From Chitinophaga pinensis (GTDB lineage: Bacteria; Bacteroidota; Bacteroidia; 2-12-FULL-35-15): 64,000 nucleotides of DNA. The notes below the pieces were generated by a model. The model had not been told where the DNA came from. It saw nothing but the letters and a program-made list of their open reading frames with translations, and searched no databases. The stretch lies in assembly GCA_945879015.1 (NCBI GenBank), contig CAMCUO010000009.1, positions 6,444 to 70,443 of the forward strand, in the 5' to 3' direction. Numbering within the stretch: the first letter of the stretch is position 1; each line of letters starts with the position of its first letter. Below, one piece after another: positions 30,034 through 46,300 of this stretch. Made by a program: the position numbers and the translations under genes.

Positions 30034-30043
30034 ATATATTCCT

Positions 30044-30074
30044 ACGAATTACGAATTTTAGCGAATTACGAATA
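30044..30074. repeat. Heptamer word run ACGAATT ACGAATT tta GCGAATT ACGAATA in the nuoM-nuoN spacer
   Basis: Read directly at 30044-30074. Confidence 0.8.
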
Positions 30075-31571: not shown

Positions 31572-33470
31572 CTAAAATAATTGAGTGAATAATATCAATA
31601 CAATACTAATCACCATTACAAAAATGTAAAACCCAATGTTTCCTGTTTGTGCTAAACGTATTGTTCCGCTCATCCAGCTAACCGCAGAACCTACACCATT
31701 TACAATTCCATCTACCAATTGATTGTCGATTACTTTATGGAATGCTTCTGATAATAAATTCAATGGTTTTGTAATTAATGTTTCGTAAATTTCATCTACC
31801 CAATATTTATTATAGACTAATTTATGTAATGGTTTTAATTCTTCGTCCTCATCAACTGGAATTGTATTTTTCTTAGAGTAAATTGTGTATGCATAATATA
31901 TTGCTGCGATCATAACAACTGTTGCAACGCCCATTAAAATGTATTCTGTTTGGTGAGATAAATGATGAACCAAACGGAAAGAAGAAGCTTCGAATACTGG
32001 ACTTAAAAATTCTTCTAAATAATGAGTGCCGTGTAATACAGCTGGAATGCCAACCAATCCACCAACGATAGATAAAACCGCCAACACAATTAAAGGAATT
32101 GTCATTGATGGTGGTGATTCATGTAAATGATGTTCTTGTTCGTGAGTTCCTCTAAATTTTCCGTGAAAGGTTAAGAAGTACAATCTAAACATGTAGAAGG
32201 TTGTCATTGCTGCACCTAAAATTCCAAAGAACCAAAGTAGTTTATTGTGAGCAAAAACATTTGCTAATATTTCATCTTTAGAAAAGAATCCAGAAAATGG
32301 GAAACAACCAGCGATTGCGAGTGTTCCGATTAAGAAGGTGATATGTGTTTTAGAAATATACTTTTTCAATCCGCCCATTTTACGAATGTCTTGTTCGCCA
32401 CCCATTGCGTGAATCACACTTCCAGCACCAAGGAATAACAATGCTTTGAAGAATGCGTGAGTCATTACGTGAAACACCGCTCCGGTATAAGCACCCACTC
32501 CAAGTGCGAGGAACATATATCCTAATTGTGAAACAGTAGAATAAGCCAATACTTTTTTAATATCGTTTTGAGCCAAGCCGATTGTTGCAGCAAACAAAGC
32601 CGTACAAATTCCGATTATTGCAACTACATTCATTGCCTCTGGAGAAAGTGTATATAAAATGTTTGAACGAGCAATCATGTAAATACCTGCAGTTACCATC
32701 GTTGCAGCGTGGATCAATGCAGACACAGGAGTTGGTCCCGCCATCGCATCAGGCAACCAAGTGTATAATGGAAGCTGTGCGCTTTTTCCCATTGCTCCGA
32801 CAAATAACAACAAAGCAATAATCGTAATAGTTGTATTTCCCGAGCCCATATTTTTTGCTTGTTCAAACACATCGTGATAACCGATACTTCCGAACGTTAC
32901 AAAAATTAAAATGATGCCTAATAAAAATCCTAAGTCGCCCACACGATTCATGATGAATGCTTTTTTCGCGGCATTATTATAAGCTGTGTTTTTAAACCAG
33001 AATCCAATTAATAAATAAGAACACAATCCAACACCTTCCCAACCCACAAACATGATTAGATAATTTGAACCCATCACCAACAACAACATGAAGAAAATAA
33101 AGAGATTCAAATAAGCGAAGAAACGAGAGAAGCCTTCATCGTGACTCATATACCCAACAGAGTAAACGTGAATCAAGAATCCAACTCCTGTAATGATTAA
33201 TAAGAATAAAGAAGAGAGTGGGTCGATTAAAAAAGAAAATGGAATAGAAAGTTTTCCTGCAGAAATCCAATTGAATAATTCGATAGTGTATTCTTTTTGA
33301 ACACCATTTTTTAATTCAAAAAATATTCCAACAGCAATTGCTAGAGCACCAAAAATTACTCCGCTTCCAATTGTACCAACAAGTCCTTTCGATAATTTTT
33401 TCCCAAACAATCCAATGATAATAAATCCCATCAAGGGAAGAAGAGGAACTAACCAAACTAATTTTATCAT
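31572..33470 (-). CDS. nuoL: NADH-quinone oxidoreductase subunit L
   Basis: 632 aa, ND5-like, with the C-terminal lateral-helix extension. Confidence 0.9.
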   Translation of the reverse strand: MIKLVWLVPLLPLMGFIIIGLFGKKLSKGLVGTIGSGVIFGALAIAVGIFFELKNGVQKEYTIELFNWISAGKLSIPFSFLIDPLSSLFLLIITGVGFLIHVYSVGYMSHDEGFSRFFAYLNLFIFFMLLLVMGSNYLIMFVGWEGVGLCSYLLIGFWFKNTAYNNAAKKAFIMNRVGDLGFLLGIILIFVTFGSIGYHDVFEQAKNMGSGNTTITIIALLLFVGAMGKSAQLPLYTWLPDAMAGPTPVSALIHAATMVTAGIYMIARSNILYTLSPEAMNVVAIIGICTALFAATIGLAQNDIKKVLAYSTVSQLGYMFLALGVGAYTGAVFHVMTHAFFKALLFLGAGSVIHAMGGEQDIRKMGGLKKYISKTHITFLIGTLAIAGCFPFSGFFSKDEILANVFAHNKLLWFFGILGAAMTTFYMFRLYFLTFHGKFRGTHEQEHHLHESPPSMTIPLIVLAVLSIVGGLVGIPAVLHGTHYLEEFLSPVFEASSFRLVHHLSHQTEYILMGVATVVMIAAIYYAYTIYSKKNTIPVDEDEELKPLHKLVYNKYWVDEIYETLITKPLNLLSEAFHKVIDNQLVDGIVNGVGSAVSWMSGTIRLAQTGNIGFYIFVMVISIVLILFTQLF

Positions 33471-33488
33471 ACTCTTTATTATTTTAAT

Positions 33489-33532
33489 CCGTCAGATAAA
33501 TCTGACGGCAATGAATTATCGGCAATGAATTA
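33489..33532. repeat. Hairpin CCGTCAGA-TAAA-TCTGACGG followed by the direct 13-mer doublet CGGCAATGAATTA x2
   Basis: Hairpin at 33489-33508. 13-mers at 33506-33518 and 33520-33532; the second overlaps the nuoK stop codon. Confidence 0.8.
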
Positions 33533-33847
33533 CCATTTTAATTTGTTCAAAATATTTATGTCGGATGATTTTGTATTTCTGTACACCATCATCAAAATTG
33601 CTAATCCTACAGCTACTTCTGCAGCAGCTACAGCCATAATAAAAAATACAAATACTTGTCCTTTACTATCAGATAAATAACTAGAGAAAGCAACAAGCAA
33701 TAAATTCACTGCGTTCAACATCAACTCTATTGACATGAAAATGATAATTGCGTTTCGTCTAAGTAAAACACCAGCCACACCAATGGTAAAAAGCACTATG
33801 CTTAAAAATAAATACCACTCGATAGGAACTATTTGTATTGCGCTCAT
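33530..33847 (-). CDS. nuoK: NADH-quinone oxidoreductase subunit K
   Basis: 105 aa, three TMs, ND4L-like. Confidence 0.9.
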
Positions 33848-33849
33848 TC

Positions 33850-33884
33850 TAGATATTAGATATTAGATTTGAGATGTTAGATTT
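33850..33884. repeat. Five tandem heptamers TAGATAT TAGATAT TAGATTT GAGATGT TAGATTT
   Basis: Read directly in the nuoJ-nuoK spacer. An AATCTGCACA doublet also lies at about 33945-33970. Confidence 0.85.
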
Positions 33885-33971
33885 AATTCTGCTCATCTGT
33901 AAATCTTGTTTTTTATTTTTTAATTTCTTTTTTTAATAATTTTCAAATCTGCACATCAGTAATCTGCACAG

Positions 33972-34472
33972 CTACTTTATACTTTTCTTTCCTAACATTA
34001 CCGCTCCAACCATTGCTGCTAATAATAATATAGATGCCAATTCAAATGGCAATAAAAATTCGTTGAACAATGTCATTCCTAAATTTTCTATTAAACCGAT
34101 ATTCGAATTAAATGTATTGGTTGTTTGAATTGCCTCTGCCCCTCTTAATGCCCCAACCAAAACCACAAGCAATAATCCTGAAGCAACTACTGCCGACGAT
34201 TTTAACCAAACACTTTTATGAGGTTCTGTTTCCTTGTTCAAGTTTAAAAGCATAATAACAAACAGAAACAAAACCATAATCGCACCTGCATAAACAATAA
34301 TGTGAACCACTGCTAAAAATTGCGCGTTCAATAAAATATAATGACCAGCAATTGCAAAAAAGGTAAGTACTAAATACAATACACTGTGTATTGGATTTTT
34401 AGTAGATACCACTCTCAATGCGAAAAAAATTGCCAGGAAGGTGAGAAAAATAAATAGAGCTTTTGTAATCAT
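33972..34472 (-). CDS. nuoJ: NADH-quinone oxidoreductase subunit J
   Basis: 166 aa, ND6-like, by operon position. Confidence 0.88.
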   Translation of the reverse strand: MITKALFIFLTFLAIFFALRVVSTKNPIHSVLYLVLTFFAIAGHYILLNAQFLAVVHIIVYAGAIMVLFLFVIMLLNLNKETEPHKSVWLKSSAVVASGLLLVVLVGALRGAEAIQTTNTFNSNIGLIENLGMTLFNEFLLPFELASILLLAAMVGAVMLGKKSIK

Positions 34473-34529
34473 AATATTTTTGTTAGTTATTGGTTACTTC
34501 CCTTCGACTACGCTCAGGGTGACGTTTAT

Positions 34530-35135
34530 TTAATGACCACTAACTTTTGTTTTTTTGTTTTTATCAAATGTCTGATTGTGTGCATAGTGTTTATCTAATT
34601 TAAACTCTTTCACATCTGGCGTTTGGCGTTTTGTTAAATCAATCGGATTTTCTTTTGATTCTACTAAAATGCTTTTGCCATAAATAAATTCTTTACGTGT
34701 ATAAAAGCTATCCACTTTTCTGTCTGTTAAAAAGATTGCTTCTTTCGGACAAGCTTCTTCGCAATCGCCACAGAAAATACAACGCAACATATTTATTTCG
34801 TAAATCGTAGCATATTTTTCTTCGCGATATAAATGCTCTTCTCCTGGTTTGCGTTCTGCAGAAACCATTGTGATTGCTTCTGCTGGACAAGCTACTGCAC
34901 AAAGCCCACAAGCAGTACAACGTTCTGCACCTTTTTCGTCACGTTTTAAAACATGTTGTCCACGATAAATTCCGCTATACTCACGTGTTTGTTCAGGATA
35001 TCTTATGGTTGCTGATTTCTTAAAAAGGTGAGTAAATGTAATCCACATACCGCTGAAAATAGCGGGGAAGTACATTCGTTCCATGAATGTCATCTCCTTT
35101 TTTGAAACAACTTGTGATCTGTTTGTTAATTGCAT
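34530..35135 (-). CDS. nuoI: NADH-quinone oxidoreductase subunit I (2x[4Fe-4S] ferredoxin)
   Basis: Two CxxCxxCxxxCP motifs (CTACGLCAVACP, CIFCGDCEEACP). I prefer the ATG at 35135 (MQLTNRSQ), because the longer track ORF runs into the inverted-repeat arm at 35144-35177. Confidence 0.88.
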   Translation of the reverse strand: MQLTNRSQVVSKKEMTFMERMYFPAIFSGMWITFTHLFKKSATIRYPEQTREYSGIYRGQHVLKRDEKGAERCTACGLCAVACPAEAITMVSAERKPGEEHLYREEKYATIYEINMLRCIFCGDCEEACPKEAIFLTDRKVDSFYTRKEFIYGKSILVESKENPIDLTKRQTPDVKEFKLDKHYAHNQTFDKNKKTKVSGH

Positions 35136-35143
35136 TTTATAAT

Positions 35144-35704
35144 CAGTTGGCAGTTGGCAATTTTTAAAAGTTGGCAATGTTTTTAGTTAATACTTTACCT
35201 CTTCCTTAATTTTCAACTTTATATTTTTACTAAATTTAGTTAATTCCGTTTTTACAATATTAGCTATTGCTTTCCTGTGTATTTTTCTGGGTTTTCAATC
35301 ATATGCCCAATCATTCTTCCTATTTCTTCAGAACGTTTTAAATAATCATCATACTGCTCTTTCTCAATATATTCACAAGCCAAAGCAAAATCCAACCACA
35401 CCTGAGTCTCGCTATTTTCCATGTCTGCATCTGAACATTTGCTTACAAAATGAGCAGGGTAAAGTCTTTTTCTGTAGCCTTCGCCAACATTCGAACAAAC
35501 AGAACGAGATGATCTTCTAATTTGACTCGTTAGACCAAATTTCTCTTCATTTGGAATTTTTTTGATTCTTTAAAAATTAGCACTGATAAATCAAATGCTT
35601 TTTTATAAACATTCAAATCTCTGAAACTTCCCATATATTAAAAGAACTATTTATTTTTATTTTTTTCCCTTTGCCAACTATTTTCTTTTGCCAACTGCCA
35701 ACTA
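35144..35704 (-). mobile_element. IVS-like cassette 1: frameshifted four-helix-bundle gene bracketed by a bipartite inverted repeat, filling the nuoH-nuoI spacer
   Basis: The outer arms CAGTTGGCAGTTGGCAA (35144-35160) and TTGCCAACTGCCAACTA (35688-35704) give 16 perfect pairs, plus a terminal G.U in the minus sense. The inner arms are AGTTGGCAA (35169-35177) and TTGCCAACT (35671-35679). An 8-nt unpaired spacer lies on each side. Confidence 0.5.
35264..35634 (-). pseudogene. Four-helix-bundle protein (23S rRNA intervening-sequence protein family, PF05635/TIGR02436-like) with one frameshift
   Basis: Own translation. Frame 1 reads MGSFRDLNVYKKAFDLSVLIFKESKK and then stops. The continuation is in another frame: PNEEKFGLTSQIRRSSRSVCSNVGEGYRKRLYPAHFVSKCSDADMENSETQVWLDFALACEYIEKEQYDDYLKRSEEIGRMIGHMIENPEKYTGKQ*. 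Restoring one nucleotide in the A7TT run (forward about 35555-35565) gives an intact ~122-aa family member (..KKFPNEEKFGLTSQIRRS..). Confidence 0.75.
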
Positions 35705-36748
35705 TTTTCCAAAATAAGCCATAATCTCATGACGCATCATCCATGCGCCAGTTAATACCATATTCAATATCGATAATGGAATTAATATTTTCCATCCTAA
35801 ATTCATTAATTGATCGTAGCGGAAACGTGGCAATGTCCAACGAACCCACATGAAGAAGAAAATGAATCCTACAATTTTCATGAACAAGAAAACAAATCCT
35901 AAAATGGCTAACCAGTTTGGATCCTGTACCCAGCGACCAATCAGAGGCATATTGTATCCACCAAAATAGAATGTAGAAATTACCGCAGAAGAAATAAACA
36001 TGTTAATGTATTCTGCAAATAAGAACAATCCTAATTTCATAGAACTATATTCTGTGTGATATCCACCCACTAATTCTGTTTCACATTCTGGTAAATCAAA
36101 CGGAGCTCTATTCGTTTCTGCGAAAGCGCAAATAATAAAAATCAAACAACCAAGAGGTTGATATAAAACATTCCAATGCCAAGTAGTTTGTTGTGCAGCA
36201 ATTTCTCCTGTGCTTAATGTTCCGGTTACCATTACTAAAGCAATGATGGAAATTCCCATCGCAACTTCATAGCTAATCATTTGTGATGATGCACGAATTG
36301 CCCCCAACAAAGAATATTTATTATTAGATGCCCAACCACCAATCATAATTCCGTAAACACCTAATGAAAGAACACCAAACAAATAAAGAATTCCAATATT
36401 CACATCTGCAATTTGCATTGGATAATCAACACCACCAATGTTGATTGATTTTCCCCAAGGAATAATTACACCAGTCATACAAGCAGTAAGCATACACAAT
36501 CCCGGACCAATAATAAAAAGCACTTTGTTGGAAACACTTGGAATCATTTCTTCCTTCATGAACATTTTCACTGCATCCGCTAATGGCTGAAGAATTCCGA
36601 AAGGACCAGCTCTATCAGGACCAATACGGTCTTGAAGGAATGCCGCAACTTTACGTTCCATGTATGTGCTATATGTTGCAACCAATAATGTGATTGAAAA
36701 AACAATCAACACTAAAATGGCTTTATATATTAAAAAATTCCACTCCAT
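35702..36748 (-). CDS. nuoH: NADH-quinone oxidoreductase subunit H
   Basis: 348 aa, ND1-like (RKVAAFLQDRIGPDRAGPFGILQPLADAVK). Confidence 0.92.
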   Translation of the reverse strand: MEWNFLIYKAILVLIVFSITLLVATYSTYMERKVAAFLQDRIGPDRAGPFGILQPLADAVKMFMKEEMIPSVSNKVLFIIGPGLCMLTACMTGVIIPWGKSINIGGVDYPMQIADVNIGILYLFGVLSLGVYGIMIGGWASNNKYSLLGAIRASSQMISYEVAMGISIIALVMVTGTLSTGEIAAQQTTWHWNVLYQPLGCLIFIICAFAETNRAPFDLPECETELVGGYHTEYSSMKLGLFLFAEYINMFISSAVISTFYFGGYNMPLIGRWVQDPNWLAILGFVFLFMKIVGFIFFFMWVRWTLPRFRYDQLMNLGWKILIPLSILNMVLTGAWMMRHEIMAYFGK

Positions 36749-36760
36749 AAATTATTTTTT

Positions 36761-36780
36761 CCGTCAGATGAATCAGACGG
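36761..36780. repeat. Degenerate copy of the CCGTCAGA...ACGG hairpin (CCGTCAGATGAATCAGACGG) in the nuoG-nuoH spacer
   Basis: 17/20 identical to 33489-33508, but only a 5-bp stem remains. Confidence 0.6.
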
Positions 36781-36792
36781 CTATGACATTAA

Positions 36793-37785
36793 TTATTTTT
36801 TACTTGCTATTTGTTTTTGTTGTTTACCAATATCCAATTTCAATTGCGCTAAATTTTCATAATGATTTTGAGAAATTACAGAATGGCGACTGATGTGAGA
36901 TGGTTTTTCTATCACCCAATCTTTCGCATCTTTTTTCTCAAAACGACAATCGTTACAAATCCAATCGATTGCTTCGCCCCACTGATCTTTGCGAGAAGTC
37001 ACACGTAACACTTCGTTTCCTTTCATCCAAATAGCAACTTTGCCTGAACACTTTGTACAATTACGATGAGCATCCATTGGTTTAGTAAACCAAACACGAC
37101 TCTTGAAGCGCCATGTTCTATCGGTTAATGCGCCAACTGGACAAACATCAATTACGTTTCCAGAGAAATCGTTATCGATTGCTTTCTCGATGTATGTGCT
37201 GATTTCAGAAGCATCGCCACGGAACAACATTCCTTGGAAACGGTTATTTGTAATTTGATCGGCCACTTTAATGCAACGGAAACACATGATACAACGAGTC
37301 ATGTGTAATTTGATGTAAGGACCAATATCTATTTGAGCAAAAGTTCTTCTTGAAAAATCGTAACGTGTTTTTGCTAATCCGTGTTCGTAGCCTAAATCTT
37401 GTAAATGACATTCACCTGCTTGATCGCAGATTGGACAATCTAATGGATGATTGATTAATAAAAATTCAACAACCCCTTTGCGAGCTTCTAACAATTCTGG
37501 AGAAGTGATATTTACTACTTCCATTCCATCCATCACATTTGTTCTGCAAGATGCAACAGGCTTTGGCATTGGACGAGGATCTTTTTCAGAACCTTTTGTT
37601 ACTTTCACAATACAAGTACGACAATATCCACCACTCGTTTTTAATTTCGAATAATAACACATTGTAGGAGGTGCAATTTTTGCATCCACCTCAGGATTTT
37701 TATCTACAAGCATACGTGCTGCTTGCAAGATGGTTGTTCCATCAGGCACTTCTATTGTATGTCCGTCTATCGTTACTTTAGCCAT
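36793..37785 (-). CDS. nuoG: NADH-quinone oxidoreductase subunit G, short form (Fe-S domains only)
   Basis: 330 aa with 2Fe-2S (CYYSKLKTSGGYCRTC) and 4Fe-4S (HPLDCPICDQAGEC, CIMCFRC) cysteine motifs. It has no molybdopterin-like C-terminal domain. Confidence 0.88.
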   Translation of the reverse strand: MAKVTIDGHTIEVPDGTTILQAARMLVDKNPEVDAKIAPPTMCYYSKLKTSGGYCRTCIVKVTKGSEKDPRPMPKPVASCRTNVMDGMEVVNITSPELLEARKGVVEFLLINHPLDCPICDQAGECHLQDLGYEHGLAKTRYDFSRRTFAQIDIGPYIKLHMTRCIMCFRCIKVADQITNNRFQGMLFRGDASEISTYIEKAIDNDFSGNVIDVCPVGALTDRTWRFKSRVWFTKPMDAHRNCTKCSGKVAIWMKGNEVLRVTSRKDQWGEAIDWICNDCRFEKKDAKDWVIEKPSHISRHSVISQNHYENLAQLKLDIGKQQKQIASKK

Positions 37786-37786
37786 T

Positions 37787-39130
37787 TTATGCTCCTGCTA
37801 ATTGATGTACACTATAATAATGTTTAACGTCTTTAATTTTTTCTGGATGATTGATGTATTCTTCAAACTCCGCACGGAAGTGACGAATAGCACTTGCCAC
37901 AGGCCACGCAGCTGCATCACCTAATGGACAAATTGTATTCCCTTCAATTTTTCTTTGAATATCCCAAAGCAAATCAATATCACTTGGCTTACCATGTCCT
38001 TCAACAATACGGTGAAGAATTTTTTCCATCCAACCTGTTCCTTCACGACAAGGAGAACATTGTCCGCAACTTTCATGATGATAGAAACGAGCAAATGTGT
38101 AAAGATTTTTTACGATGCTCGTTGTTTCATCATACACAATGAATCCACCTGAACCCAACATTGTTCCTGTTGCAAATCCACCTTCACTTAATGATTCGTA
38201 CGACATCAAACGCGGTTCGCCTTTGTCGTTTTTCAAAATTAATTCTGCTGGTAAAATAGGAACAGAAGAACCTCCAGCAACAACTGCTTTTAGTTTTCGT
38301 CCGTTAATAATTCCACCGCAATATTCTTCCGAGTATATAAATTCTTCAACAGGTAATCCCAATTCAATTTCGTAAACACCAGGTTTATTAATGTGTCCAG
38401 ATGCTGAAATTAATTTTGTTCCTGTGCTTCTTCCAATTCCGATTTTTGCATATTCGTCTCCACCCATCATGATGATTGGACAAACAGTTGCAATTGTTTC
38501 CACGTTATTTACAACAGTCGGACAGCCCCATACACCAGCGATTGCCGGGAATGGTGGTTTGATACGCGGGTTTCCACGTTTTCCTTCTAATGATTCTAAC
38601 AATGCTGTTTCTTCACCACAGATGTATGCACCTCCACCCACTTGCACGTAGCAGTCGTGTGAGAAATCTGATCCTAAAATATTTTTTCCTAATAATCCAG
38701 CAGCGTATGCTTCATCTAAGGCTTTCTCTAAAATTCTTGCAACATAAAAATATTCTCCACGGATATAGATGTAAGATGTTTTTGCTCCTAATGCATAAGA
38801 CGAAGTGATCATTCCTTCAATCAATAAATGAGGAATTACTTCCATCAAGTAACGATCTTTGAATGTTCCCGGTTCCGATTCATCAGCATTACAAACTAAG
38901 TAACGCTCAACACCTTCTGGTCGTGCAAGGAAACTCCATTTCATTCCTGTTGGGAAACCTGCACCACCACGCCCTCTTAATCCTGATTTTTTTACTTCTT
39001 CCAACACTTCAGGAGGAGTCATTGTTTTCAATGCTTTTTCTACTGATGCGTAACCGCCATGTTGACGATACACTTCAAGTGTTGCGATTCCCGGAACTTT
39101 GTCGTTATGAATTAATAATTTCTTCCCCAT
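37787..39130 (-). CDS. nuoF: NADH-quinone oxidoreductase subunit F
   Basis: GLRGRGGAGFPTG (FMN/NADH site) and ESCGQCSPCREG (4Fe-4S). Confidence 0.93.
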   Translation of the reverse strand: MGKKLLIHNDKVPGIATLEVYRQHGGYASVEKALKTMTPPEVLEEVKKSGLRGRGGAGFPTGMKWSFLARPEGVERYLVCNADESEPGTFKDRYLMEVIPHLLIEGMITSSYALGAKTSYIYIRGEYFYVARILEKALDEAYAAGLLGKNILGSDFSHDCYVQVGGGAYICGEETALLESLEGKRGNPRIKPPFPAIAGVWGCPTVVNNVETIATVCPIIMMGGDEYAKIGIGRSTGTKLISASGHINKPGVYEIELGLPVEEFIYSEEYCGGIINGRKLKAVVAGGSSVPILPAELILKNDKGEPRLMSYESLSEGGFATGTMLGSGGFIVYDETTSIVKNLYTFARFYHHESCGQCSPCREGTGWMEKILHRIVEGHGKPSDIDLLWDIQRKIEGNTICPLGDAAAWPVASAIRHFRAEFEEYINHPEKIKDVKHYYSVHQLAGA

Positions 39131-39672
39131 TACAAAGTATTTTTATAATCCATGTCTGTGTAACTTCTTCTTTTTCCAGCAGCACGATAATCTTCTAGTA
39201 ATTTATCTACTTTTTCAAGAGTTAAATTTTCGTGATACGATGCCCCGCATTGCAATAATGGTGCTGTTCCGCAACTTCCTAAACATTCTACTGTTTTAAT
39301 AGTGAACATTCCGTCTTTCGTTGTTTCTCCTTCTTTGATTCCTAATTTTTTCTCTAAGTGCTTAACAACATCTTCAGCTCCACGTGTCCAGCACGATGAC
39401 GTACGACATACTTCCAACAAACATTTTCCAACCGGTTTTAAATTATACATCGAATAAAAAGATGCTACTTCATAAACTTCAATTGGTTTGATGTTTAAAA
39501 CTGAAGCAACGTAATCCATTGTTTCCGGACTTAACCAGCCGCCAAATTCAGCCTGAGCAATGTGCAGAATCGGAAGCAATGCCGACTTGTGTTTGCCTTC
39601 AGGATAACGCTTGATCATCTTGTGAACCAAGGCAAGCGTTTCTTCGTTAAATTTTATTTCTACTTGTGCCAC
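39130..39672 (-). CDS. nuoE: NADH-quinone oxidoreductase subunit E
   Basis: 180 aa, 2Fe-2S thioredoxin-like (CRTSSC...CLGSCGTAP). GTG start; 1-nt overlap with nuoF. Confidence 0.9.
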   Translation of the reverse strand: MAQVEIKFNEETLALVHKMIKRYPEGKHKSALLPILHIAQAEFGGWLSPETMDYVASVLNIKPIEVYEVASFYSMYNLKPVGKCLLEVCRTSSCWTRGAEDVVKHLEKKLGIKEGETTKDGMFTIKTVECLGSCGTAPLLQCGASYHENLTLEKVDKLLEDYRAAGKRRSYTDMDYKNTL

Positions 39673-39716
39673 TAATTATAATTTATTTTTAATAATAGTC
39701 ACTCTCTTCCTTAACA

Positions 39717-39762
39717 CCTCATCCGTCCGCCCTTGCGGACACCTTCTCCAAAATGGAGAAGG
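39717..39762. repeat. Double-hairpin REP-like element, copy B (nuoD-nuoE spacer)
   Basis: CCTCATCCGTCCGCCCTTGCGGACACCTTCTCCAAAATGGAGAAGG. It has the same order and orientation as copy A (25872-25919) and begins 27 nt past the nuoD stop codon. Confidence 0.8.
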
Positions 39763-39788
39763 GAAATCGCTCCGTTTGTTTATTTATC

Positions 39789-41006
39789 CTATGCGTCTAA
39801 TTCTCCAGCAATCACATTCATACTACTCATTGTTAAAATTGCATCAGAAAGCATTCCGCCTCTGATCATTTCTGCGTAAGCTTGATAATAAATAAAACAC
39901 GGTCTGCGCATATGCAAACGATAAGGTGTTCTTCCTCCATCACTAATTAAGTAGTAACCTAATTCTCCGTTACCACCTTCTACTGCATGATATACTTCTC
40001 CTTTCGGAATTTCTGTTTCACCCATCACAATTTTAAAGTGATAGATTAATGCTTCCATATTATTGTATACTTCTTCTTTCGGAGGAAGGAAAAATTCAGG
40101 AACATCAGCATGAAAAATTCCAGCAGGTTCTTTTTTTATTTTTGCAATTGCTTGATGAATAATTTTTACACTCTCCCACATTTCTTGTTGACGCACCATA
40201 AAACGATCGTAAGTGTCGCCTTGTGTTCCAACAGGAATAATAAAATCAAAATCTTCGTAAGAGCAATATGGATTCATTACACGAACATCATAATCAACTC
40301 CAGCCGCACGTAAATTCGGACCAGAGAAACTATAATTCAATGCACGCTCTGCAGTTATTGGTCCGCAGTTAATTGTGCGATCCATAAAAATTCTGTTTCT
40401 CATTAAAAGATTTTCGAATTCTTTTAATGCAGAAGGAAAGTCAATTAAAAATTTATCTAATAAGTCCCAAGCTTTCGGGGTAAAATCTCTTTCTAATCCA
40501 CCTATGCGACCAATGTTAGTTGTTAAACGTGCTCCACATAATTCTTCATAGATATCATAAATACGTTCACGCATTTGGAAGATGTATAAGAAGCCGGTCA
40601 TTGCACCTGTATCCACACCAATAACAGAATTACAAATAACGTGATCAGAAATTCTTGCTAATTCCATAATGATAACGCGCATATATTGTACACGTTTGGG
40701 AATTTCAATTCCCAATAATTTTTCTACTGTCATGTGCCAACCCATGTTGTTGATTGGCGATGAACAATAATTTAAACGATCGGTGATTGGAGTGATTTGA
40801 TAGTATGGTCTGCGCTCAGCTAATTTTTCGAATGCACGGTGAATGTATCCGACAGTTGCTTCGGAATCCATAATTATTTCGCCATCCATTTTCAACACGT
40901 TCTGAAAAATACCGTGTGTCGCGGGATGCGTTGGCCCTAAGTTAAGAGTGGAGTATTCTGTCTCTATTAACTCTTGATTTGTATTTGTATTTTTTTCTTT
41001 GCTCAT
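39789..41006 (-). CDS. nuoD: NADH-quinone oxidoreductase subunit D
   Basis: LNLGPTHPATHG hallmark. I prefer the ATG at 41006 (MSKEKNTNTN), because the longer track ORF reads through the repeat arm at 41018-41049. Confidence 0.92.
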   Translation of the reverse strand: MSKEKNTNTNQELIETEYSTLNLGPTHPATHGIFQNVLKMDGEIIMDSEATVGYIHRAFEKLAERRPYYQITPITDRLNYCSSPINNMGWHMTVEKLLGIEIPKRVQYMRVIIMELARISDHVICNSVIGVDTGAMTGFLYIFQMRERIYDIYEELCGARLTTNIGRIGGLERDFTPKAWDLLDKFLIDFPSALKEFENLLMRNRIFMDRTINCGPITAERALNYSFSGPNLRAAGVDYDVRVMNPYCSYEDFDFIIPVGTQGDTYDRFMVRQQEMWESVKIIHQAIAKIKKEPAGIFHADVPEFFLPPKEEVYNNMEALIYHFKIVMGETEIPKGEVYHAVEGGNGELGYYLISDGGRTPYRLHMRRPCFIYYQAYAEMIRGGMLSDAILTMSSMNVIAGELDA

Positions 41007-41017
41007 TAGCCTCTTTA

Positions 41018-41463
41018 AGTCAAAAGTTTTAAAGTCAAAAGTCAAAAAGACTTTATCTTATTTTTTTAAGTTAATAATTATTGTTCCAAGAACTTTTGAA
41101 ATTTCTAATAATTCACTTTTATCGTTTTTCATTAAACTAATATCTAAATCATATCCCTCTTCAATTGTTTCCATCCAAAAATCTGTTTCATTTGCTGAAC
41201 GTAAAGCAATTTCATAATACCTTATCAACTCCCTTTTTGAACTACTCGCTTTTCCTTCTCTAACATTTGCTCCCACCGATGTGCCGCTTCGCAATATTTG
41301 ATCTCTTAAAGAATATTCAACGCCCTGAACTTTTAATTCAAGTACTAACTTAATTATTCTAACCGCAAACTTCTTTGTCCTAACACGAATGTCCTTATCG
41401 TATTCCATAAATCCCTTCAACCATCAAAAGCTTTTTTGACTTTTGACTTTCTCTCTTTTAACT
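41018..41463 (-). mobile_element. IVS-like cassette 2: intact four-helix-bundle gene bracketed by a bipartite inverted repeat, filling the nuoC-nuoD spacer
   Basis: Long arms: AGTCAAAAGTCAAAAA (41033-41048) and TTTTTGACTTTTGACT (41433-41448), 16 perfect pairs. Short arms: AGTCAAAAG (41018-41026) and CTTTTAACT (41455-41463), 8 pairs plus one position that is G.U in the minus (mRNA) sense. A 6-nt unpaired spacer lies on each side. Confidence 0.5.
41058..41420 (-). CDS. Four-helix-bundle protein (23S rRNA intervening-sequence protein family, PF05635/TIGR02436-like)
   Basis: 120 aa. RTKKFAVRIIKLVLEL...LRDQILRSGTSVGANVREGKASSSKRELIRYYEIALRSANETDFWMETI matches the family pattern (KFA..I..L....L..Q.LRS.TSIGAN..E...A.S..DFI.K..IALKEA.ET.YWL), recalled from memory. 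Confidence 0.8.
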   Translation of the reverse strand: MKGFMEYDKDIRVRTKKFAVRIIKLVLELKVQGVEYSLRDQILRSGTSVGANVREGKASSSKRELIRYYEIALRSANETDFWMETIEEGYDLDISLMKNDKSELLEISKVLGTIIINLKK

Positions 41464-41467
41464 TTAT

Positions 41468-41977
41468 TTATCTTCCAAACATTTTATCATCTTTATCTTC
41501 ACGTGTTCCATCTTCCAATGCATATTCTTTTCTCATTGGGAAATATCCCAAATCATCCATATTTAAAATGCGTTTTAAGTTTGGATGTCCTCTAAAAATT
41601 ATTCCGTAAAAATCATACTCCTGTCGTTCCATCCAATTAGCAGCAGAAAACACAGGTGTTAATGAAGGAACATTTACATCGCTAGTGCTGAAAAATATTT
41701 TTATTCTGATTCTTAAATTTTTTGGAAGGTTGTGTAATTGATACATCACAGCAAATTCTTGTCCTGCATTATCAGGATAATGAATTGTTGCCATGGTTGT
41801 TAAATATTGAAAAGCTAGCTCTTCATCTTTGTAAAGAAAATCAGCTACATCACAAATGATATCACGCTTCACAACAAACTCAGGATAATCAACATTCATT
41901 TTAGATGAAATAAATCCATCTCCGAATTGAGCTTTTAATTTGTTTTCTACTAAGGTTAATAATGCTTGTGTTTCCAT
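41468..41977 (-). CDS. nuoC: NADH-quinone oxidoreductase subunit C
   Basis: 169 aa: ERQEYDFYGIIFRGHPNLKRIL. Confidence 0.92.
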   Translation of the reverse strand: METQALLTLVENKLKAQFGDGFISSKMNVDYPEFVVKRDIICDVADFLYKDEELAFQYLTTMATIHYPDNAGQEFAVMYQLHNLPKNLRIRIKIFFSTSDVNVPSLTPVFSAANWMERQEYDFYGIIFRGHPNLKRILNMDDLGYFPMRKEYALEDGTREDKDDKMFGR

Positions 41978-41984
41978 GGTCTCA

Positions 41985-42017
41985 CCCCCAACCCCTCTCC
42001 TTGTTCAAGGAGAGGGG
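41985..42017. repeat. C-rich leader plus 11-bp hairpin (CCCCCAA-CCCCTCTCCTT-GTTC-AAGGAGAGGGG) just upstream of the nuoC start codon
   Basis: Read directly. A related, shorter element is at 42696-42720. Confidence 0.75.
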
Positions 42018-42066
42018 GGAAGAATTCGTTTTAGTTATATGATATATTTTCTATTCTCAATTTTTG

Positions 42067-42087
42067 CTTTTGACTTTTGACTTTTTT
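42067..42087. repeat. Solo extra copy of the cassette-2 right arm (CTTTTGACTTTTGACTTTTTT) in the nuoB-nuoC spacer
   Basis: It contains TTTTGACTTTTGACT, complementary to 41033-41047, in the same orientation as the arm at 41433-41448. Confidence 0.75.
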
Positions 42088-42101
42088 CCCTTTTGATTTA
42101 T

Positions 42102-42662
42102 TTATTCCATTCCGTATTTATTCAACAACGCTTTATATTCAGGAGAATCTCTTCTTCTGATAGATTCTGACTCCACTAATTTTTGAATTTGTAAAATTCC
42201 GTCTAATACTTGTTCAGGGCGAGGAGGACAACCAGGAATGTAAACATCTACTGGAATAACTCTATCAATTCCTTGAAGAACGCTGTATGTATCAAAAATT
42301 CCACCGCTAGAAGCACATGCGCCCATTGATAAAACCCATTTAGGCTCTGCCATTTGTTCGTATACTTGTTTTAGTACCGGAGCCATTTTTTTAGAGATGG
42401 TTCCCATTACCATTAATAAATCTGCTTGACGAGGAGAGAAACTTAAACGTTCAGCTCCGAAACGACCTAAATCGTAAGTAGAAGCCATGGTTGCCATAAA
42501 TTCGATTCCGCAACAAGAAGTAGCAAACGGCAAAGGCCACAATGAATTTGCACGTGCCATACCAACTACCTTATCAATACGTGTAGCAAAAAATCCTGGC
42601 CCTTCAATTCCCGGAGGAGCATCAGCATCTAATTCTATTTTTGATTTTTCTTTTGTACTCAT
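42102..42662 (-). CDS. nuoB: NADH-quinone oxidoreductase subunit B
   Basis: [26 protein letters not shown] prefer the ATG at 42662 (MSTKEK); the track start at 42680 is TTG. Confidence 0.92.
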
Positions 42663-42695
42663 TATGTTTTTCGCTTTCAATGAAGATCTTTTAAT

Positions 42696-42720
42696 CCCCC
42701 CAACCCCCTTTTTAAGGGGG
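42696..42720. repeat. C-rich leader plus 7-bp hairpin (CCCCCCAA-CCCCCTT-TTT-AAGGGGG) upstream of nuoB
   Basis: It shares the CCCCCAACCCC leader with 41985-42017. Confidence 0.7.
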
Positions 42721-42758
42721 AATTTGTTCTAACAATAATTTTATTGCAATTTACACAG

Positions 42759-42793
42759 ATTCGTAATATTCGTTTTAATTCGTTATCCGTAAC
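42759..42793. repeat. ATTCGT-word repeat ATTCGTAATATTCGTTTTAATTCGTTATCCGTAAC, abutting the nuoA stop
   Basis: Near-identical to 1129-1160, apart from one substitution in each of the first and last words and small indels. Confidence 0.8.
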
Positions 42794-43171
42794 CTATTCC
42801 CATTTTAGCGCACCCTTTTTCAGGATGTAATAAAATCCAACTAATAAAAAGCCTACAAACGTTAGCATTTCTACAAATCCTGCTAATCCTAATTCCTTAA
42901 AATTTACTGCCCATGGATACATAAAAATCACCTCCACATCAAACAGTACAAATAAAATTGCGATTAAAAAGTATTTGATTGAAAAAGGTAAACGCGCATT
43001 GCCTTGTACCTCAATACCACACTCAAATGTTTCTGATTTAATTTTTGATTTCTTTTTTGGTCCAAGCTGATGAGTAAGGAACAACATGAACATTACAAAA
43101 CCAATAGCAACCAAAAACATTAAAGCAATAGGGAGAAAATCTACAGGAGCACTTTGTACAGATAAAAGCAT
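42794..43171 (-). CDS. nuoA: NADH-quinone oxidoreductase subunit A
   Basis: ND3-like: FECGIE...FSIKYFLIAILFVLFDVEVIFMYPW. I prefer the ATG at 43171 (MLLSVQSAP). Confidence 0.9.
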   Translation of the reverse strand: MLLSVQSAPVDFLPIALMFLVAIGFVMFMLFLTHQLGPKKKSKIKSETFECGIEVQGNARLPFSIKYFLIAILFVLFDVEVIFMYPWAVNFKELGLAGFVEMLTFVGFLLVGFYYILKKGALKWE

Positions 43172-43331
43172 ATAAATAGGTTTTTCTTTTCGAATCAATT
43201 TTAGGTATTTTTTTTGAAATAACCCAAATTTTGCGAACAAATTTAGTGTTTTATAGATAGGAGAATATACTAATTTGATTATTTAGACAGAATACATTTT
43301 ATTCCCGCTGAAACACAGAGGACTATAAATA

Positions 43332-43360
43332 AAAAATCCCACCTCATTTGCTGAGACGGG
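43332..43360 (-). terminator. Probable terminator after the giant adhesin gene
   Basis: The minus-sense reading CCCGTCTCAGCAAATGAGGTGGG forms an imperfect stem, followed by ATTTTTTATTT. Confidence 0.5.
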
Positions 43361-43384
43361 ACTTCTATTCTTTTATTATCTTGA

Positions 43385-46300
43385 TTAATACACAATAATT
43401 TTCTTCACTACATCGTGTTTATCATTTGTCAAGATAATGGTATAAACTCCTTTTCCATAATCAACAACGCTGAATGGTTTGTTATAATTACCAGAGAAGT
43501 TTTTCAATTCTTCCTTATAAATCAACTGACCTAAAGCATTCGTTAATTCTAACGTATAGTTCGCAGGAGTATATACATTAAATGTAATGTTAAAATTACC
43601 ATCACTTGGATTAGGATAGATGTTTAAACCATACTGATTACTTGCATCACTAATTCCAACATTTATAATTACTTCTGGAGCAGATTCTGCGGATGCACAA
43701 CCACTTGTTGTTACAATTACGGTATAGGTTCCATTTGATGTAAATGTATAGTTTTGGTTAGTAGCACCAGCAATCAATACTCCATTTAAATACCACTGAT
43801 TTCCTGTTGCAGAACTTGATGTTAACGTTGTTCCTGATACAGAAATTGTTGGTGTTGGAGGAATTGGATTTACAACCATTGTAATTCCTGTACTAGTTGC
43901 GGTAAGCGGACTAGCACAAGTTGCATTAGATGTTAAGATACACGTTACGATATCTCCATTCGCTAATGTTGTGGTTGTATAAGTAGTTCCACCTGTTCCA
44001 ACGTTAGTTCCATTTACTTGCCATTGATAAGTTGGAGTAGTTCCACCATTTGTTGAAGTTGCTGTAAATAAAACTGATGTTCCTGCACATATTGGTCCTG
44101 CAGGACTTGCAACAACACTCACTGACGGAGTAACAGTAGCATTTACTGTCATTGTGATAGCATTTGAAGTTGCTGTAGCTGTACTTGGACAAGCTGCATT
44201 CGATGTCATAATACAAGTTACAATGTTTCCATTTGCCAATGTTGTGCTTGTATAAGTTGTTCCGCCTGTTCCAACATTCAATCCATTCACTTGCCACTGG
44301 TATGTTGGAGTTGTTCCACCATTCGTTGGTGTTGCAGTAAATGTTACAGATGTTCCTGCGCATATTGCTCCTGTTGGACTAGCAACAATAGTTACCGAAG
44401 GAACTACAACTGGATTTACAGTCATTGTAATTGCATTGGATGTTACAGTAGCTGATGGGCTAGGACATGTTGCATTAGATGTTAAAATACACGTTACAAT
44501 TTGTCCGTTTGTTAAAGTACTAGAAACGTATGTCGGACTATTTGTTCCAACGTTACTTCCGTTAACTTGCCATTGATAAACAGGTGTTGTTCCTCCGTTT
44601 GTAATACTAGCAGTAAATGTAACAGATGTTCCTGCACATATTGCTCCTGCAGGACTAGCAACTATACTAATAGTTGGAGTCACTGTTGGAGTCACTGTCA
44701 TTGAAATGGAATTAGATGTTAACGTAACAGGACTTGGACAAACAGCATTAGAACCCAAAATACAAGTTATAATATCGCCATTGTTTAATAAAGCGGATGA
44801 ATATAATGGACTATTGGTTCCAACGTTAGCGCCATTTATTTGCCATTGATATGTTGGTGCTGCACCACCATTGGTTATTGTAGCAGTAAAGTTAACTACT
44901 GTTCCTGAACAAATTGTTCCTGTTGGACTAGCTACAATACTTATTGTTGGTGTAACCGTTGGATTCACCGTCATCGTAATTGCGTTAGATGTTGCAGTTA
45001 TTGGAGCAGCACATGGAGAACTTGAAGTTAATATACACGTTACAATATCGCCATTTGCTAAAGTTGTTGATGTATAAGTTGTTCCGCCTGTTCCAACGTT
45101 TAATCCATTTAATTGCCATTGATAAGTTGGAGTTGTTCCACCTCCACCAGCAGTTGCAGTGAATGTTACAGACGTACCAGAACAAATCGGTCCAGTAGGA
45201 CTTGCAACAATACTATTTGTTGGAACAACGCTACCACTAACAACAACCGCTACTGTTGAAACTGGACTAGTACAGCCCAACACAGTAACTGTTAAGCTAT
45301 AAGTACCAGCCATACCTGCTGTTGCAGATGGACGAGAAGGATCTTCAAGAGCAGAAGTATAAGCCAAGGGACCTGTCCATGCATATGTTGCACCAGCTAC
45401 AGTATTGGATGTCAATAAAATTGTTGAACCAGTACAAACAGGAGAATTACTTCCAACTGTTGGTGCTGCAGGGATTGGATTCACAACAATAGTAACCGTT
45501 CCAGCTAAACTAGTACAACCACCATTTGTAACTGTTAATGAATATGTCCCGCCCATAACTGTTGTAACACTTGTTAATGCTGGAGGATTTCTCACTGCTG
45601 CTGCATAACTATTTGGGCCAGTCCAGCTATAAGTATACCCACCACCTAAGTTAGGAGTAGTTAAAGTAATTGTACCACCTGCACAAATTGCGGCAGGAGT
45701 TGTACTTCCGTTAATACTTGGAACCGGAGTTGCCGGCAATGCGTTCACAACAACTGTTGTTGTTGCAACTGCACTTGTACATCCACCAACTGTAACTGTT
45801 AAACTATATGTTCCTGCCATCGCAAGTGTTGCAGAAGGACGAGTTGGATCTTCTAAAGAAGAAGAAAAGGCTGCAGGTCCTGTCCATGAATAAGTTGCAC
45901 CTGCTATTGTATTTGATGTCAAACTAATTGTTTGTCCAACACAATCAGGAGTACTACTTCCAACTGTCGGTGTTGCTGGTGTAGTGTTTACAGCAACTAC
46001 TGTTGTAGCAACGGCACTTGTACATCCACCAACTGTTACTGTTAAACTATATGTTCCTGACATGGCTGTTGTTGCAGATGCAATGCTTGGATCTTCCAAT
46101 GCTGAAGTATATGCAAGAGGTCCAGTCCAACTATATGTTGCACCTGCTACTGTGTTTGATGTTAATAATATAGTAGAGCCAACACAAACCGGGGAATTGC
46201 TTCCTGCTGTTGGTGTTGCTGCGGCTGTGTTGACAGCTACTGTTGTTGTCGCTATAGCACTTGTACATCCGCCTACAGTAATTGTTAAGCTATATGTTCC

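Follow-up and report, generated by a model that had tools for sequence, protein, structure and literature searches.

The nuo operon in a 64,000-nucleotide stretch of a Chitinophaga pinensis genome assembly (GenBank GCA_945879015.1, contig CAMCUO010000009.1, positions 6,444 to 70,443; hereafter the window) carries an insert between nuoH and nuoI, which is probably a passenger cassette of the intervening sequence (IVS) type, that is, a promoter-less gene for a four-helix-bundle protein with its own heptamer ends, housed in the nuoH-nuoI spacer of a freshwater lineage of Bacteroidota. The IVS-type cassette is known from ribosomal RNA (rRNA); what is new here is its location in a messenger RNA (mRNA) spacer, together with a copy that appears to be freshly inactivated. 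About 130 related loci were compared in all (cited by L numbers), among them 80 genomic loci of the subfamily to which the window gene belongs, 26 metagenomic loci from the subfamily of a sister gene between nuoC and nuoD (cassette 2) and 10 plasmid loci. The comparison showed a unit that lives almost only in spacers between co-oriented genes and that has been kept in the nuoH-nuoI spacer through long divergence under strong purifying selection and repeatedly lost by deletion. Most loci come from metagenome bins and their neighbouring genes were called by a simple longest-open-reading-frame rule, while arms were matched without gaps instead of by whole-flank RNAduplex folding, which gave sprawling, uninformative duplexes.

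The open reading frame (ORF) at 35264-35634 is split into frames of 34 and 52 amino acids, and one added base gives a protein of 123 residues whose score on TIGR02436 ('four helix bundle protein') is 104 bits, against a cut-off of 24. A first-pass annotation of this DNA, which had proposed an IVS-like four-helix-bundle cassette between nuoH and nuoI in the orientation of nuo, is supported, with the ORF on the minus strand. The intact C-terminal fragment (35264-35422) matches PF05635 with 30.6 bits (cut-off 33.8) and bAvd likewise below its cut-off. Database relatives of the restored protein number more than 7,900 and carry PF05635 and bAvd (PF22296); those in the PDB (2RLD and 2GSC) have 5 chains per entry. 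The motif RxxxSxxxNxxE, described for this family (PMC3936711), is present as R41, S45, N49 and E52, and in an alignment of homologues R41, S45 and E52 are invariant or nearly so, with N in most rows at position 49. The protein is very basic, with a conserved stretch SQIRRSSRSV...YRKR. According to a 2024 survey, the four-helix-bundle family is still functionally uncharacterised, and a search with PADLOC defence models gave no match for either cassette protein of the window.

The cassette occupies the entire nuoH-nuoI spacer, which is 566 nucleotides (nt) long here (35136-35701, minus strand) versus 8-17 nt in relatives without the insert. The nuoI start is the ATG at 35133-35135, followed by an N-terminus (MQLTNRSQVVSKKEMTF) kept across relatives. 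On the plus strand the outer arms read CAGTTGGCAGTTGGCAA (35144-35160) and TTGCCAACTGCCAACTA (35688-35704), forming 16 base pairs (bp) of perfect complementarity, and an inner pair of 9 bp (35169-35177 with 35671-35679) is set off by 8-nt loops on both sides; a repeat search merges both stems into one pair of 33-nt arms with 82% complementarity. The right outer arm takes in the stop codon of nuoH (35702-35704). These stems with their symmetric spacers, the overlap of the right arm with the nuoH stop and the distance of 8 nt between the left arm and the nuoI start had all been reported before, and direct reading of the sequence and coordinates bore them out. The heptamer CAGTTGG is the building block of outer and inner arms alike, and the 8-mer AGTTGGCA occurs ten times in the window against 2.1 expected, six of the ten copies lying within arms. 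Among the 49 genes of the window, a flanking inverted repeat score of at least 16 was reached only by the two four-helix-bundle genes (16 and 18), all others scoring 14 or less. The RNA fold of the cassette, computed for the mRNA-sense strand, closes on the arms with z = -3.7 versus shuffles. Among the closer same-spacer orthologues, the motif AATAGTTCTTT (within 35635-35651) ahead of the gene is also kept.

This anatomy recurs across the family. A flanking inverted repeat score of at least 12 was found at 65% of 77 loci versus 0.7% of 269 shifted control positions, and a score of at least 16 at 38% of cassettes and at no control. Together with the comparison among window genes and the word counts, these controls place the arms far beyond chance. 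Self-match at a lag of 7 amounts to 0.41-0.42 in the flanks versus 0.255 in distal DNA, and exact period-7 arrays occur at 1.42 per kb near cassettes versus 0.063 per kb elsewhere; periods of 5, 6 and 8-10 show no enrichment in the flanks, 7 alone being enriched. In the subfamily of the window gene the unit consensus is AGTnnnC, i.e. (CAGTnnn)n, where 18 of 24 arrays with AGT units lie on the 5' side and 19 of 26 with ACT units on the 3' side. A higher purine content of the 5' arrays relative to the 3' arrays holds for this subfamily and for that of cassette 2 (p = 0.002 and 0.0008). The words vary from clade to clade (AGTTGGC, AGTCGGC, AGTAGGC, AGTTGAC, AGTCTTC and others) and often mixed within one arm. 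The cassette-2 subfamily uses AAGTCAA, AAGTCAC, AAGTTAA, AAAGCGG, AATGATG and AAGGGTT, and Nostoc-type plasmid homologues carry GCAGGGGA or GCAGAGGA units of 7-8 nt with a C-rich complement downstream. The first-pass annotation held that the arms of the two window cassettes share nothing, a view that is not supported: both are AGT-phased (AGTTGGC and AGTCAAA), and both are purine-rich 5' and pyrimidine-rich 3'.

Word copy number and spacing vary freely, extra local hairpins of words occur, and arrays reach about 18 units (L031). The 3' flank of L031 holds about nine copies of GCCGACTGGAGACT and that of L036 eight copies of GGAGACT, resembling microsatellite-like growth. In L025, L027, L044, L050 and L055, arms of mixed words are mirrored exactly in the opposite arm, each with a perfect 16-nt match over two different words. 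This mirroring of heterogeneous words supports selection on structure, and arm complementarity itself is maintained. A strict specificity of one word per protein was also considered and is weakened by the many cassettes that mix several word variants.

Three lines of evidence tie the arms to the gene. Orthologues with saturated synonymous sites (synonymous divergence, dS, >1 to L002, L004 and L009) still have the word AGTTGGC in both arms, although they differ in the remaining spacer, in how many words they carry and in how these are spaced. L033 and L042 have ORFs with 94% nucleotide identity between unrelated flanking genes, and their homology starts exactly at the first 5' heptamer and stops about 35 nt past the last 3' heptamer; L043 and L050 show the same pattern of a shared cassette. 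Genes of the cassette-2 type occupy different nuo spacers, namely C-D (the window, L087 and L097), A-B (L088), F-G (L089-L094 and L118) and D-E (L095, L096 and L102), and arrays of the TTTTGAC or TTTTAAC type stand beside most of them (L087, L088, L091, L095-L097, L102 and L118), a few loci having none or another word. Word retention, array-bounded homology and the keeping of word type across nuo spacers thus show gene and arrays to be one unit that is inherited as a whole and relocated as a whole, between spacers and between genomes. The first-pass annotation had argued for selection on structure rather than common descent of the arms; the former is supported by the mirrored words, but the denial of common descent is not supported, as the arms are inherited and moved with the gene.

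In L043 and L050 a further outer inverted pair, ATGTAACTATTCA ... TGAATAGTTAC, lies beyond the heptamer arrays, some 115 nt ahead of the gene and 100 nt past it, and the homology shared by these two loci seems to stop at this outer pair. AATAGTTAC is also found downstream of the gene in L033 and L039.

At the nuoH-nuoI site, all 20 loci found with a gene at least 74% identical in protein sit between nuoH and nuoI (L001-L017, L019; metagenomic Bacteroidota), and the ratio of nonsynonymous divergence (dN) to dS across these orthologues is 0.03-0.11 (median 0.07). Other states of the site were obtained by looking up relatives of nuoI. L119 and L120 are empty sites with spacers of 8 and 17 nt; L118 has a spacer of 262 nt with the last ~25 codons of the gene followed by 3' words, i.e. 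a 5'-truncated remnant; and L117, the closest nuoI from that search (90% amino acid identity), has a 64-nt spacer holding only decayed 3' words and also has no nuoC-nuoD cassette. As filled, truncated, near-deleted and empty states coexist among relatives, the cassette at this site is old, dispensable and lost through ragged deletion. Comparison of the filled sites with the empty ones (L119 and L120) gave no recognisable duplicated target, and the losses observed are ragged.

Compared with L008 (2501-2869), the window ORF shows 93-97% nucleotide identity and a dS of 0.36, versus ~80% identity and a dS of 1.55-1.9 for the flanking nuoH and nuoI. That the cassette as a whole was recently transferred between L008 and the window lineage was considered and discarded, the spacers and arms showing no raised identity; the high identity of the ORF may stem from constraint on synonymous sites or from a short recombination tract that does not reach beyond the ORF.

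The reading frame of the window copy is broken by a 1-nt deletion at a tract of A7 (35557-35563) followed by TT (35555-35556) on the minus strand. The first-pass annotation was right that a single nucleotide is missing but took it for an eighth A; since the three closest relatives (96-97% identical in protein) carry A7T3, reading TCAAAAAAATTTCC where the window reads TCAAAAAAATTCC, the lost base is a T of the T3 run (A7T3 to A7T2). Against the three nearest relatives dN is 0.010-0.014 and dS 0.36-0.41, which puts the gene under strong purifying selection until very recently; the frame is broken either by a mutation of very young age or by an error of assembly. The A_AAA_AAA at 35557-35563 is also a classical -1 slippery heptamer, and some full-length product through this slippery tract is conceivable despite the frameshift; a -1 slip at A7 would restore the frame to ...KKIPNEE..., with I replacing the invariant F27. 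A conserved programmed shift is excluded because the relatives are in frame.

Table 1 Features of the nuoH-nuoI insert, its host genes and the sister cassette (window coordinates; arm sequences in mRNA sense)
Feature	Coordinates	Strand	Remarks
nuoH	35702..36748	minus	PF00146; upstream host gene
5' outer arm, UAGUUGGCAGUUGGCAA	35688..35704	minus	two tandem CAGTTGG heptamers
5' half of symmetric 8 x 8 internal loop	35680..35687	minus	from sequence and fold
5' inner arm, AGUUGGCAA	35671..35679	minus	single word
5' untranslated stretch of cassette	35635..35670	minus	
Four-helix-bundle gene (TIGR02436 / PF05635)	35264..35634	minus	broken by 1-nt deletion
3' untranslated stretch of cassette	35178..35263	minus	little conservation among orthologues
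3' inner arm, UUGCCAACU	35169..35177	minus	
3' half of internal loop	35161..35168	minus	
3' outer arm, UUGCCAACUGCCAACUG	35144..35160	minus	ends 8 nt before nuoI ATG
nuoI (4Fe-4S)	34530..35135	minus	downstream host gene; start backed by N-terminus kept in relatives
Sister cassette, nuoC-nuoD spacer	41017..41465	minus	ORF 41058-41420
Sister cassette words	5': 41455-41465, 41431-41450; 3': 41031-41049, 41017-41026	minus	

ORF-bearing IVS in 23S rRNA occur in Leptospira, Coxiella, Xanthomonas and Brucella and have been known since the early 1990s. The window cassette shares with them the protein family, the sense orientation relative to the host transcript, terminal inverted repeats that close a stem round the ORF, arms of tandem purine-rich heptamers 5' with their complement 3', and an ORF that decays in some lineages. 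It differs in location, since those IVS sit in helix 45, 25 or 9 of 23S rRNA and the window cassette lies in the nuoH-nuoI spacer, so that the defining location of a 23S IVS does not apply; a permissive Rfam search of 33400-43500 gave no match. RNase III cleavage, shown for the rRNA elements, would be an extrapolation for the nuo cassette, and the Coxiella protein appears to be decaying, unlike the relatives of the window gene, which are under strong purifying selection. L126 (Azospirillum lipoferum plasmid AZO_p2) provides a bridge between the two settings: its homologue, 38% identical, interrupts a gene for 23S rRNA (Rfam LSU_rRNA_bacteria, 514 bits) and is a genuine intervening sequence. 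The layout is that of the window cassette, with CAGAGGA CGGATGA CAGAGGA CGGAGGA upstream and TCCGTCC TCTGTCT TCTGTCA TCCGTCT downstream. In the Coxiella IVS, two to three GACAGAT heptamers lie in the terminal stem, their number varying by strain, and RNase III cuts at the first repeat (PMC4990558). Since both L126 and the Coxiella IVS carry heptamer stems, the window cassette has the anatomy of a true IVS, but within an mRNA.

The genomic context is consistent with a life on the host transcript. The cassette is co-oriented with both neighbours in 68 of the 75 cassettes that have two callable neighbours (91%) and opposed to both in one. Recurrent contexts besides nuo are sensor kinase-response regulator operons, plasmid type IV secretion operons and a position between a long upstream gene and a thiolase gene, read as fadJ-thiolase from sequence motifs. 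In sequence scans of the cassette, promoter-like sites did not exceed expectation, and neither a terminator-like site nor a -7 box of the Bacteroidota type turned up; a TAAATTTG box stands directly upstream of nuoA. The lack of an own promoter or terminator, the 91% co-orientation and the homology to rRNA IVS favour an element that lives on the host transcript and whose arms pair in RNA. In the mechanism that we propose, the cassette would be transcribed only within the nuo mRNA, where the arms, each 33 nt long, would form an interrupted stem of ~25 bp, looping out the 0.5-kb insert and bringing the nuoH stop beside the nuoI start. This stem may be a site for RNase III as in rRNA IVS, with release of the cassette RNA and no harm to the host transcript. 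An RNA-level function of the arms, as an RNase III stem of the rRNA type, is what we infer from these analogies.

Other observations count against a passenger acting through RNA or are neutral towards it. The word is conserved in sequence where purely structural selection would permit drift. The intact orthologues L013, L017 and L019 have non-complementary or very weak arms, and in L019 the heptamers of one side differ from those of the other; the gene can therefore do without the stem. Mismatches in the arms are G.U-compatible 28 times in the sense and 30 times in the antisense orientation; the 17th position of the outer arms (C35144/A35704) does form G.U on the minus (mRNA) strand only, as had been pointed out, but this is not a general feature. 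The sense duplex is the stabler one in 54 of 77 loci, but controls show an equal bias (p = 0.32). Finally, long vertical retention and strong purifying selection fit a useful host gene and a selfish one equally. The stem is real and maintained, and may act at the level of RNA or of DNA.

It is possible, though not probable, that the arrays are DNA-level terminal inverted repeats with direct sub-repeats, moved by an enzyme encoded elsewhere, and that the RNA stem is a by-product, a scheme that is compatible with a passenger cassette. Tn7 and Mu also have several direct sub-repeats per end, and the window cassette does have the terminal inverted repeats of a transposon or miniature element. Such ends would accommodate the same cassette in unrelated contexts with homology bounded by the arrays, the hopping of cassette-2 relatives among nuo spacers, the presence/absence polymorphism among relatives, the missing strand-specific wobble signal and the conservation of the word in both arms. 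Mobile DNA of this kind sits less easily with the losses, which are ragged (L117 and L118) rather than precise excisions, with filled and empty sites between which no target-site duplication is visible, and with cassettes to which no transposase or recombinase is linked. Word copy number and spacing are also freer to vary than such ends would suggest, extra local word hairpins occur, and the 91% co-orientation requires an additional argument from selection.

A protein might recognise the words, given that their CAGT core is conserved next to a variable 3-nt spacer, that their polarity is fixed and that arrays persist without pairing; the cassette's own basic pentameric ring would be the obvious candidate reader. 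The explicit form of this idea, in which the arrays are cognate sites of that ring, with one CAGU+3-nt unit of single-stranded RNA or DNA per protomer, and serve autoregulation, protection or mobilisation, is unlikely in our estimation. A model for a ring that reads repeats exists in TRAP, which binds its GAG repeats, and Avd binds nucleic acids. Besides the conserved 4-nt core with a variable 3-nt spacer within single arrays, recognition by the ring would explain arrays without complementarity (L019), a purine-rich array that is always 5', the different words of two paralogues in one genome and the constancy of protein type and word across locations, and it agrees with a very basic protein carrying the conserved SQIRRSSRSV...YRKR and with solved relatives of 5 chains per entry. 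Co-inheritance alone, however, accounts for the pairing of protein type and word. A single cassette can contain several variants of the word, the complementary 3' array could not be read by the same single-strand site, and cyanobacterial relatives use units of 7-8 nt.

Domestication, with stem and gene serving the host, for example by giving the two halves of the nuo mRNA a different stability or stoichiometry, is doubtful. Long retention in the same spacer, strong purifying selection and the occupation of several nuo spacers in this lineage would all be expected of a domesticated operon element, but the same cassettes occur in fadJ-thiolase, sensor kinase-response regulator, type IV secretion and cas operons, and the closest nuoI relative (L117) has lost both cassettes, while L119 and L120 are without the nuoH-nuoI one. 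Bacteroidota are rich in invertons, and inverted repeats do flank the gene, but its flipping by a recombinase is highly improbable with 68 cassettes co-oriented with both neighbours against one opposed to both, and with no adjacent recombinase. The other short repeats in the nuo spacers of the window might suggest that the arms are due to chance or are generic simple repeats of intergenic DNA with no relation to the gene, but the probability of this is negligible after the 8-mer count, flank-score and period-7 controls.

Returning to the IVS-type passenger cassette, other known systems resemble it in part. Avd proteins of diversity-generating retroelements have a homologous four-helix-bundle fold, with weak matches of the restored protein to NF033474 (35 bits) and Pfam bAvd, but 35 bits is far under the equivalog cut-off of 80. 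With nuoH and nuoI on either side, no reverse transcriptase adjoins the gene (elsewhere in the window no screen for one was made), and no template/variable repeat pair was found among the repeats of 35050-35760; a component of a diversity-generating retroelement was ruled out by context and by the Avd cut-off. Integron cassettes are promoter-less ORFs that are read through and bounded by imperfect inverted repeats on 7-bp core sites (attC). The window cassette differs in having no adjacent integrase or attI, in its tandem arrays on both sides of the ORF and in standing singly inside a housekeeping operon, and an integron cassette was ruled out by this context of arrays on both sides and nuo neighbours. 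Enterobacterial repetitive intergenic consensus sequences or intergenic repeat units (ERIC/IRU), repetitive extragenic palindromes and bacterial interspersed mosaic elements (REP/BIME), other palindromic elements and miniature inverted-repeat elements are small inverted-repeat inserts in transcribed spacers that fold in mRNA. All these are geneless and near-identical in multiple copies, whereas the cassettes carry a conserved gene and the word differs between them.

Genes annotated as 23S_rRNA_IVP, of the same family and with the same motif RxxxSxxxNxxE as the window gene, have been described inside cas operons (e.g. between cmr3 and cmr2), co-oriented and with tiny spacers (Zhang and Ye 2014, PMC3936711). 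That study took the location as a functional link to CRISPR-Cas and described no flanking heptamer arrays; our comparisons suggest operon hitch-hiking, as in many unrelated operons. Heptameric simple repeats in intergenic DNA, their function unexplained, have been reported as GGGGA(C/T)T in Anabaena and GGGAATC in Xanthomonas (PMC4692102). AGTCCCC fits the CAGTnnn scheme of the cassette arms. The cyanobacterial short tandemly repeated repetitive (STRR) units CCCCAGT and CAACAGT fit it as well. STRR are tandem heptamers, and cyanobacterial homologues of the gene are flanked by G-rich arrays of 7-8 nt; a link between heptameric simple repeats and four-helix-bundle genes is offered as a lead only. 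A search of full-text literature, which does not cover subscription journals, gave no description of heptamer-flanked PF05635 cassettes in operon spacers.

The sister cassette in the nuoC-nuoD spacer has its short stem outside and an 18-bp stem inside. The first-pass annotation saw one layout in both cassettes; a bipartite stem does recur, but the order of long and short stems is a mirror image. One spacer upstream, between nuoB and nuoC, a solo array without its own gene (AAGTCAAAAGTCAAAAGC, 42066-42083, minus strand) has the word and orientation of the 5' arm of the nuoC-nuoD cassette, and L117 has no spacer at that point; the array might represent a footprint or a landing pad, or else serve as an alternative pairing partner.

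Further repeats are scattered through the operon. GC-rich hairpins with a (T/C)TGGGGG(T)G tail (e.g. CCCCTCTCC...GGAGAGGGGTTGGGGGTGAG) lie at 41981-42019 (nuoB-C), 42696-42720 (nuoA-B) and 39725-39763 (nuoD-E), and similar tailed hairpins occur in the E-F and L-M spacers of L117; they look like a separate family of small repeated elements. ACGAAT words at 42759-42784 (nuoA-B) have their complement, ATTCGTA x 4, at 30043-30073 (nuoM-N), 12.7 kb away in the same transcript. Repeats also lie at 33506-33532 in the nuoK-L spacer (a 14-nt direct repeat and a hairpin) and at 33850-33882 in the nuoJ-K spacer, which is 124 nt long with TAGATAT x 4.7 and measures 12-13 nt in L002, L004 and L117. The nuoJ-nuoK spacer was rejected as an ORF-less cassette, its fold being no better than shuffles (z = -0.35). 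Immediately upstream of nuoA is an ORF of 2604 residues (43385-51199, minus strand) that contains long tandem repeats, 243 and 273 nt in size.

In this lineage, nuo is a hot spot for passenger genes. Other small inserts are present in the nuo spacers of relatives (L002 1187-1836, L004 1263-1742, L119 465-1442 and L118 1-41). Between nuoF and nuoG they comprise a nucleotidyltransferase/HepT toxin-antitoxin pair as well as a TonB_C gene; a cytochrome c gene lies between nuoG and nuoH, and in one case nuoG is preceded by a gene of the cassette-2 type.

A cultured carrier of such a cassette is available in Emticicia sp. W12TSBA100-4 (L062). As a tentative and rather unlikely generalisation, PF05635 genes might be the cargo of a very widespread and hitherto undescribed class of transcription-dependent mobile cassettes that end in inverted arrays of purine-rich heptamers, (CAGnnnn)n, with the 23S IVS as a special case and a pentameric ring reading the arrays, one unit per protomer. 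If true, this would explain the excess of heptamer repeats in bacteria, including the cyanobacterial STRR, for which the cassettes are a candidate explanation, as well as the spurious associations with cas and other operons and the patchwork of small inserts in spacers such as those of nuo. Guilt by association for this family, for instance the link to CRISPR-Cas, calls for caution, as it may be mere operon hitch-hiking. With the gene and its inverted heptamer arrays living mainly between co-oriented protein-coding genes, what was an rRNA curiosity becomes a general, testable element with defined ends.

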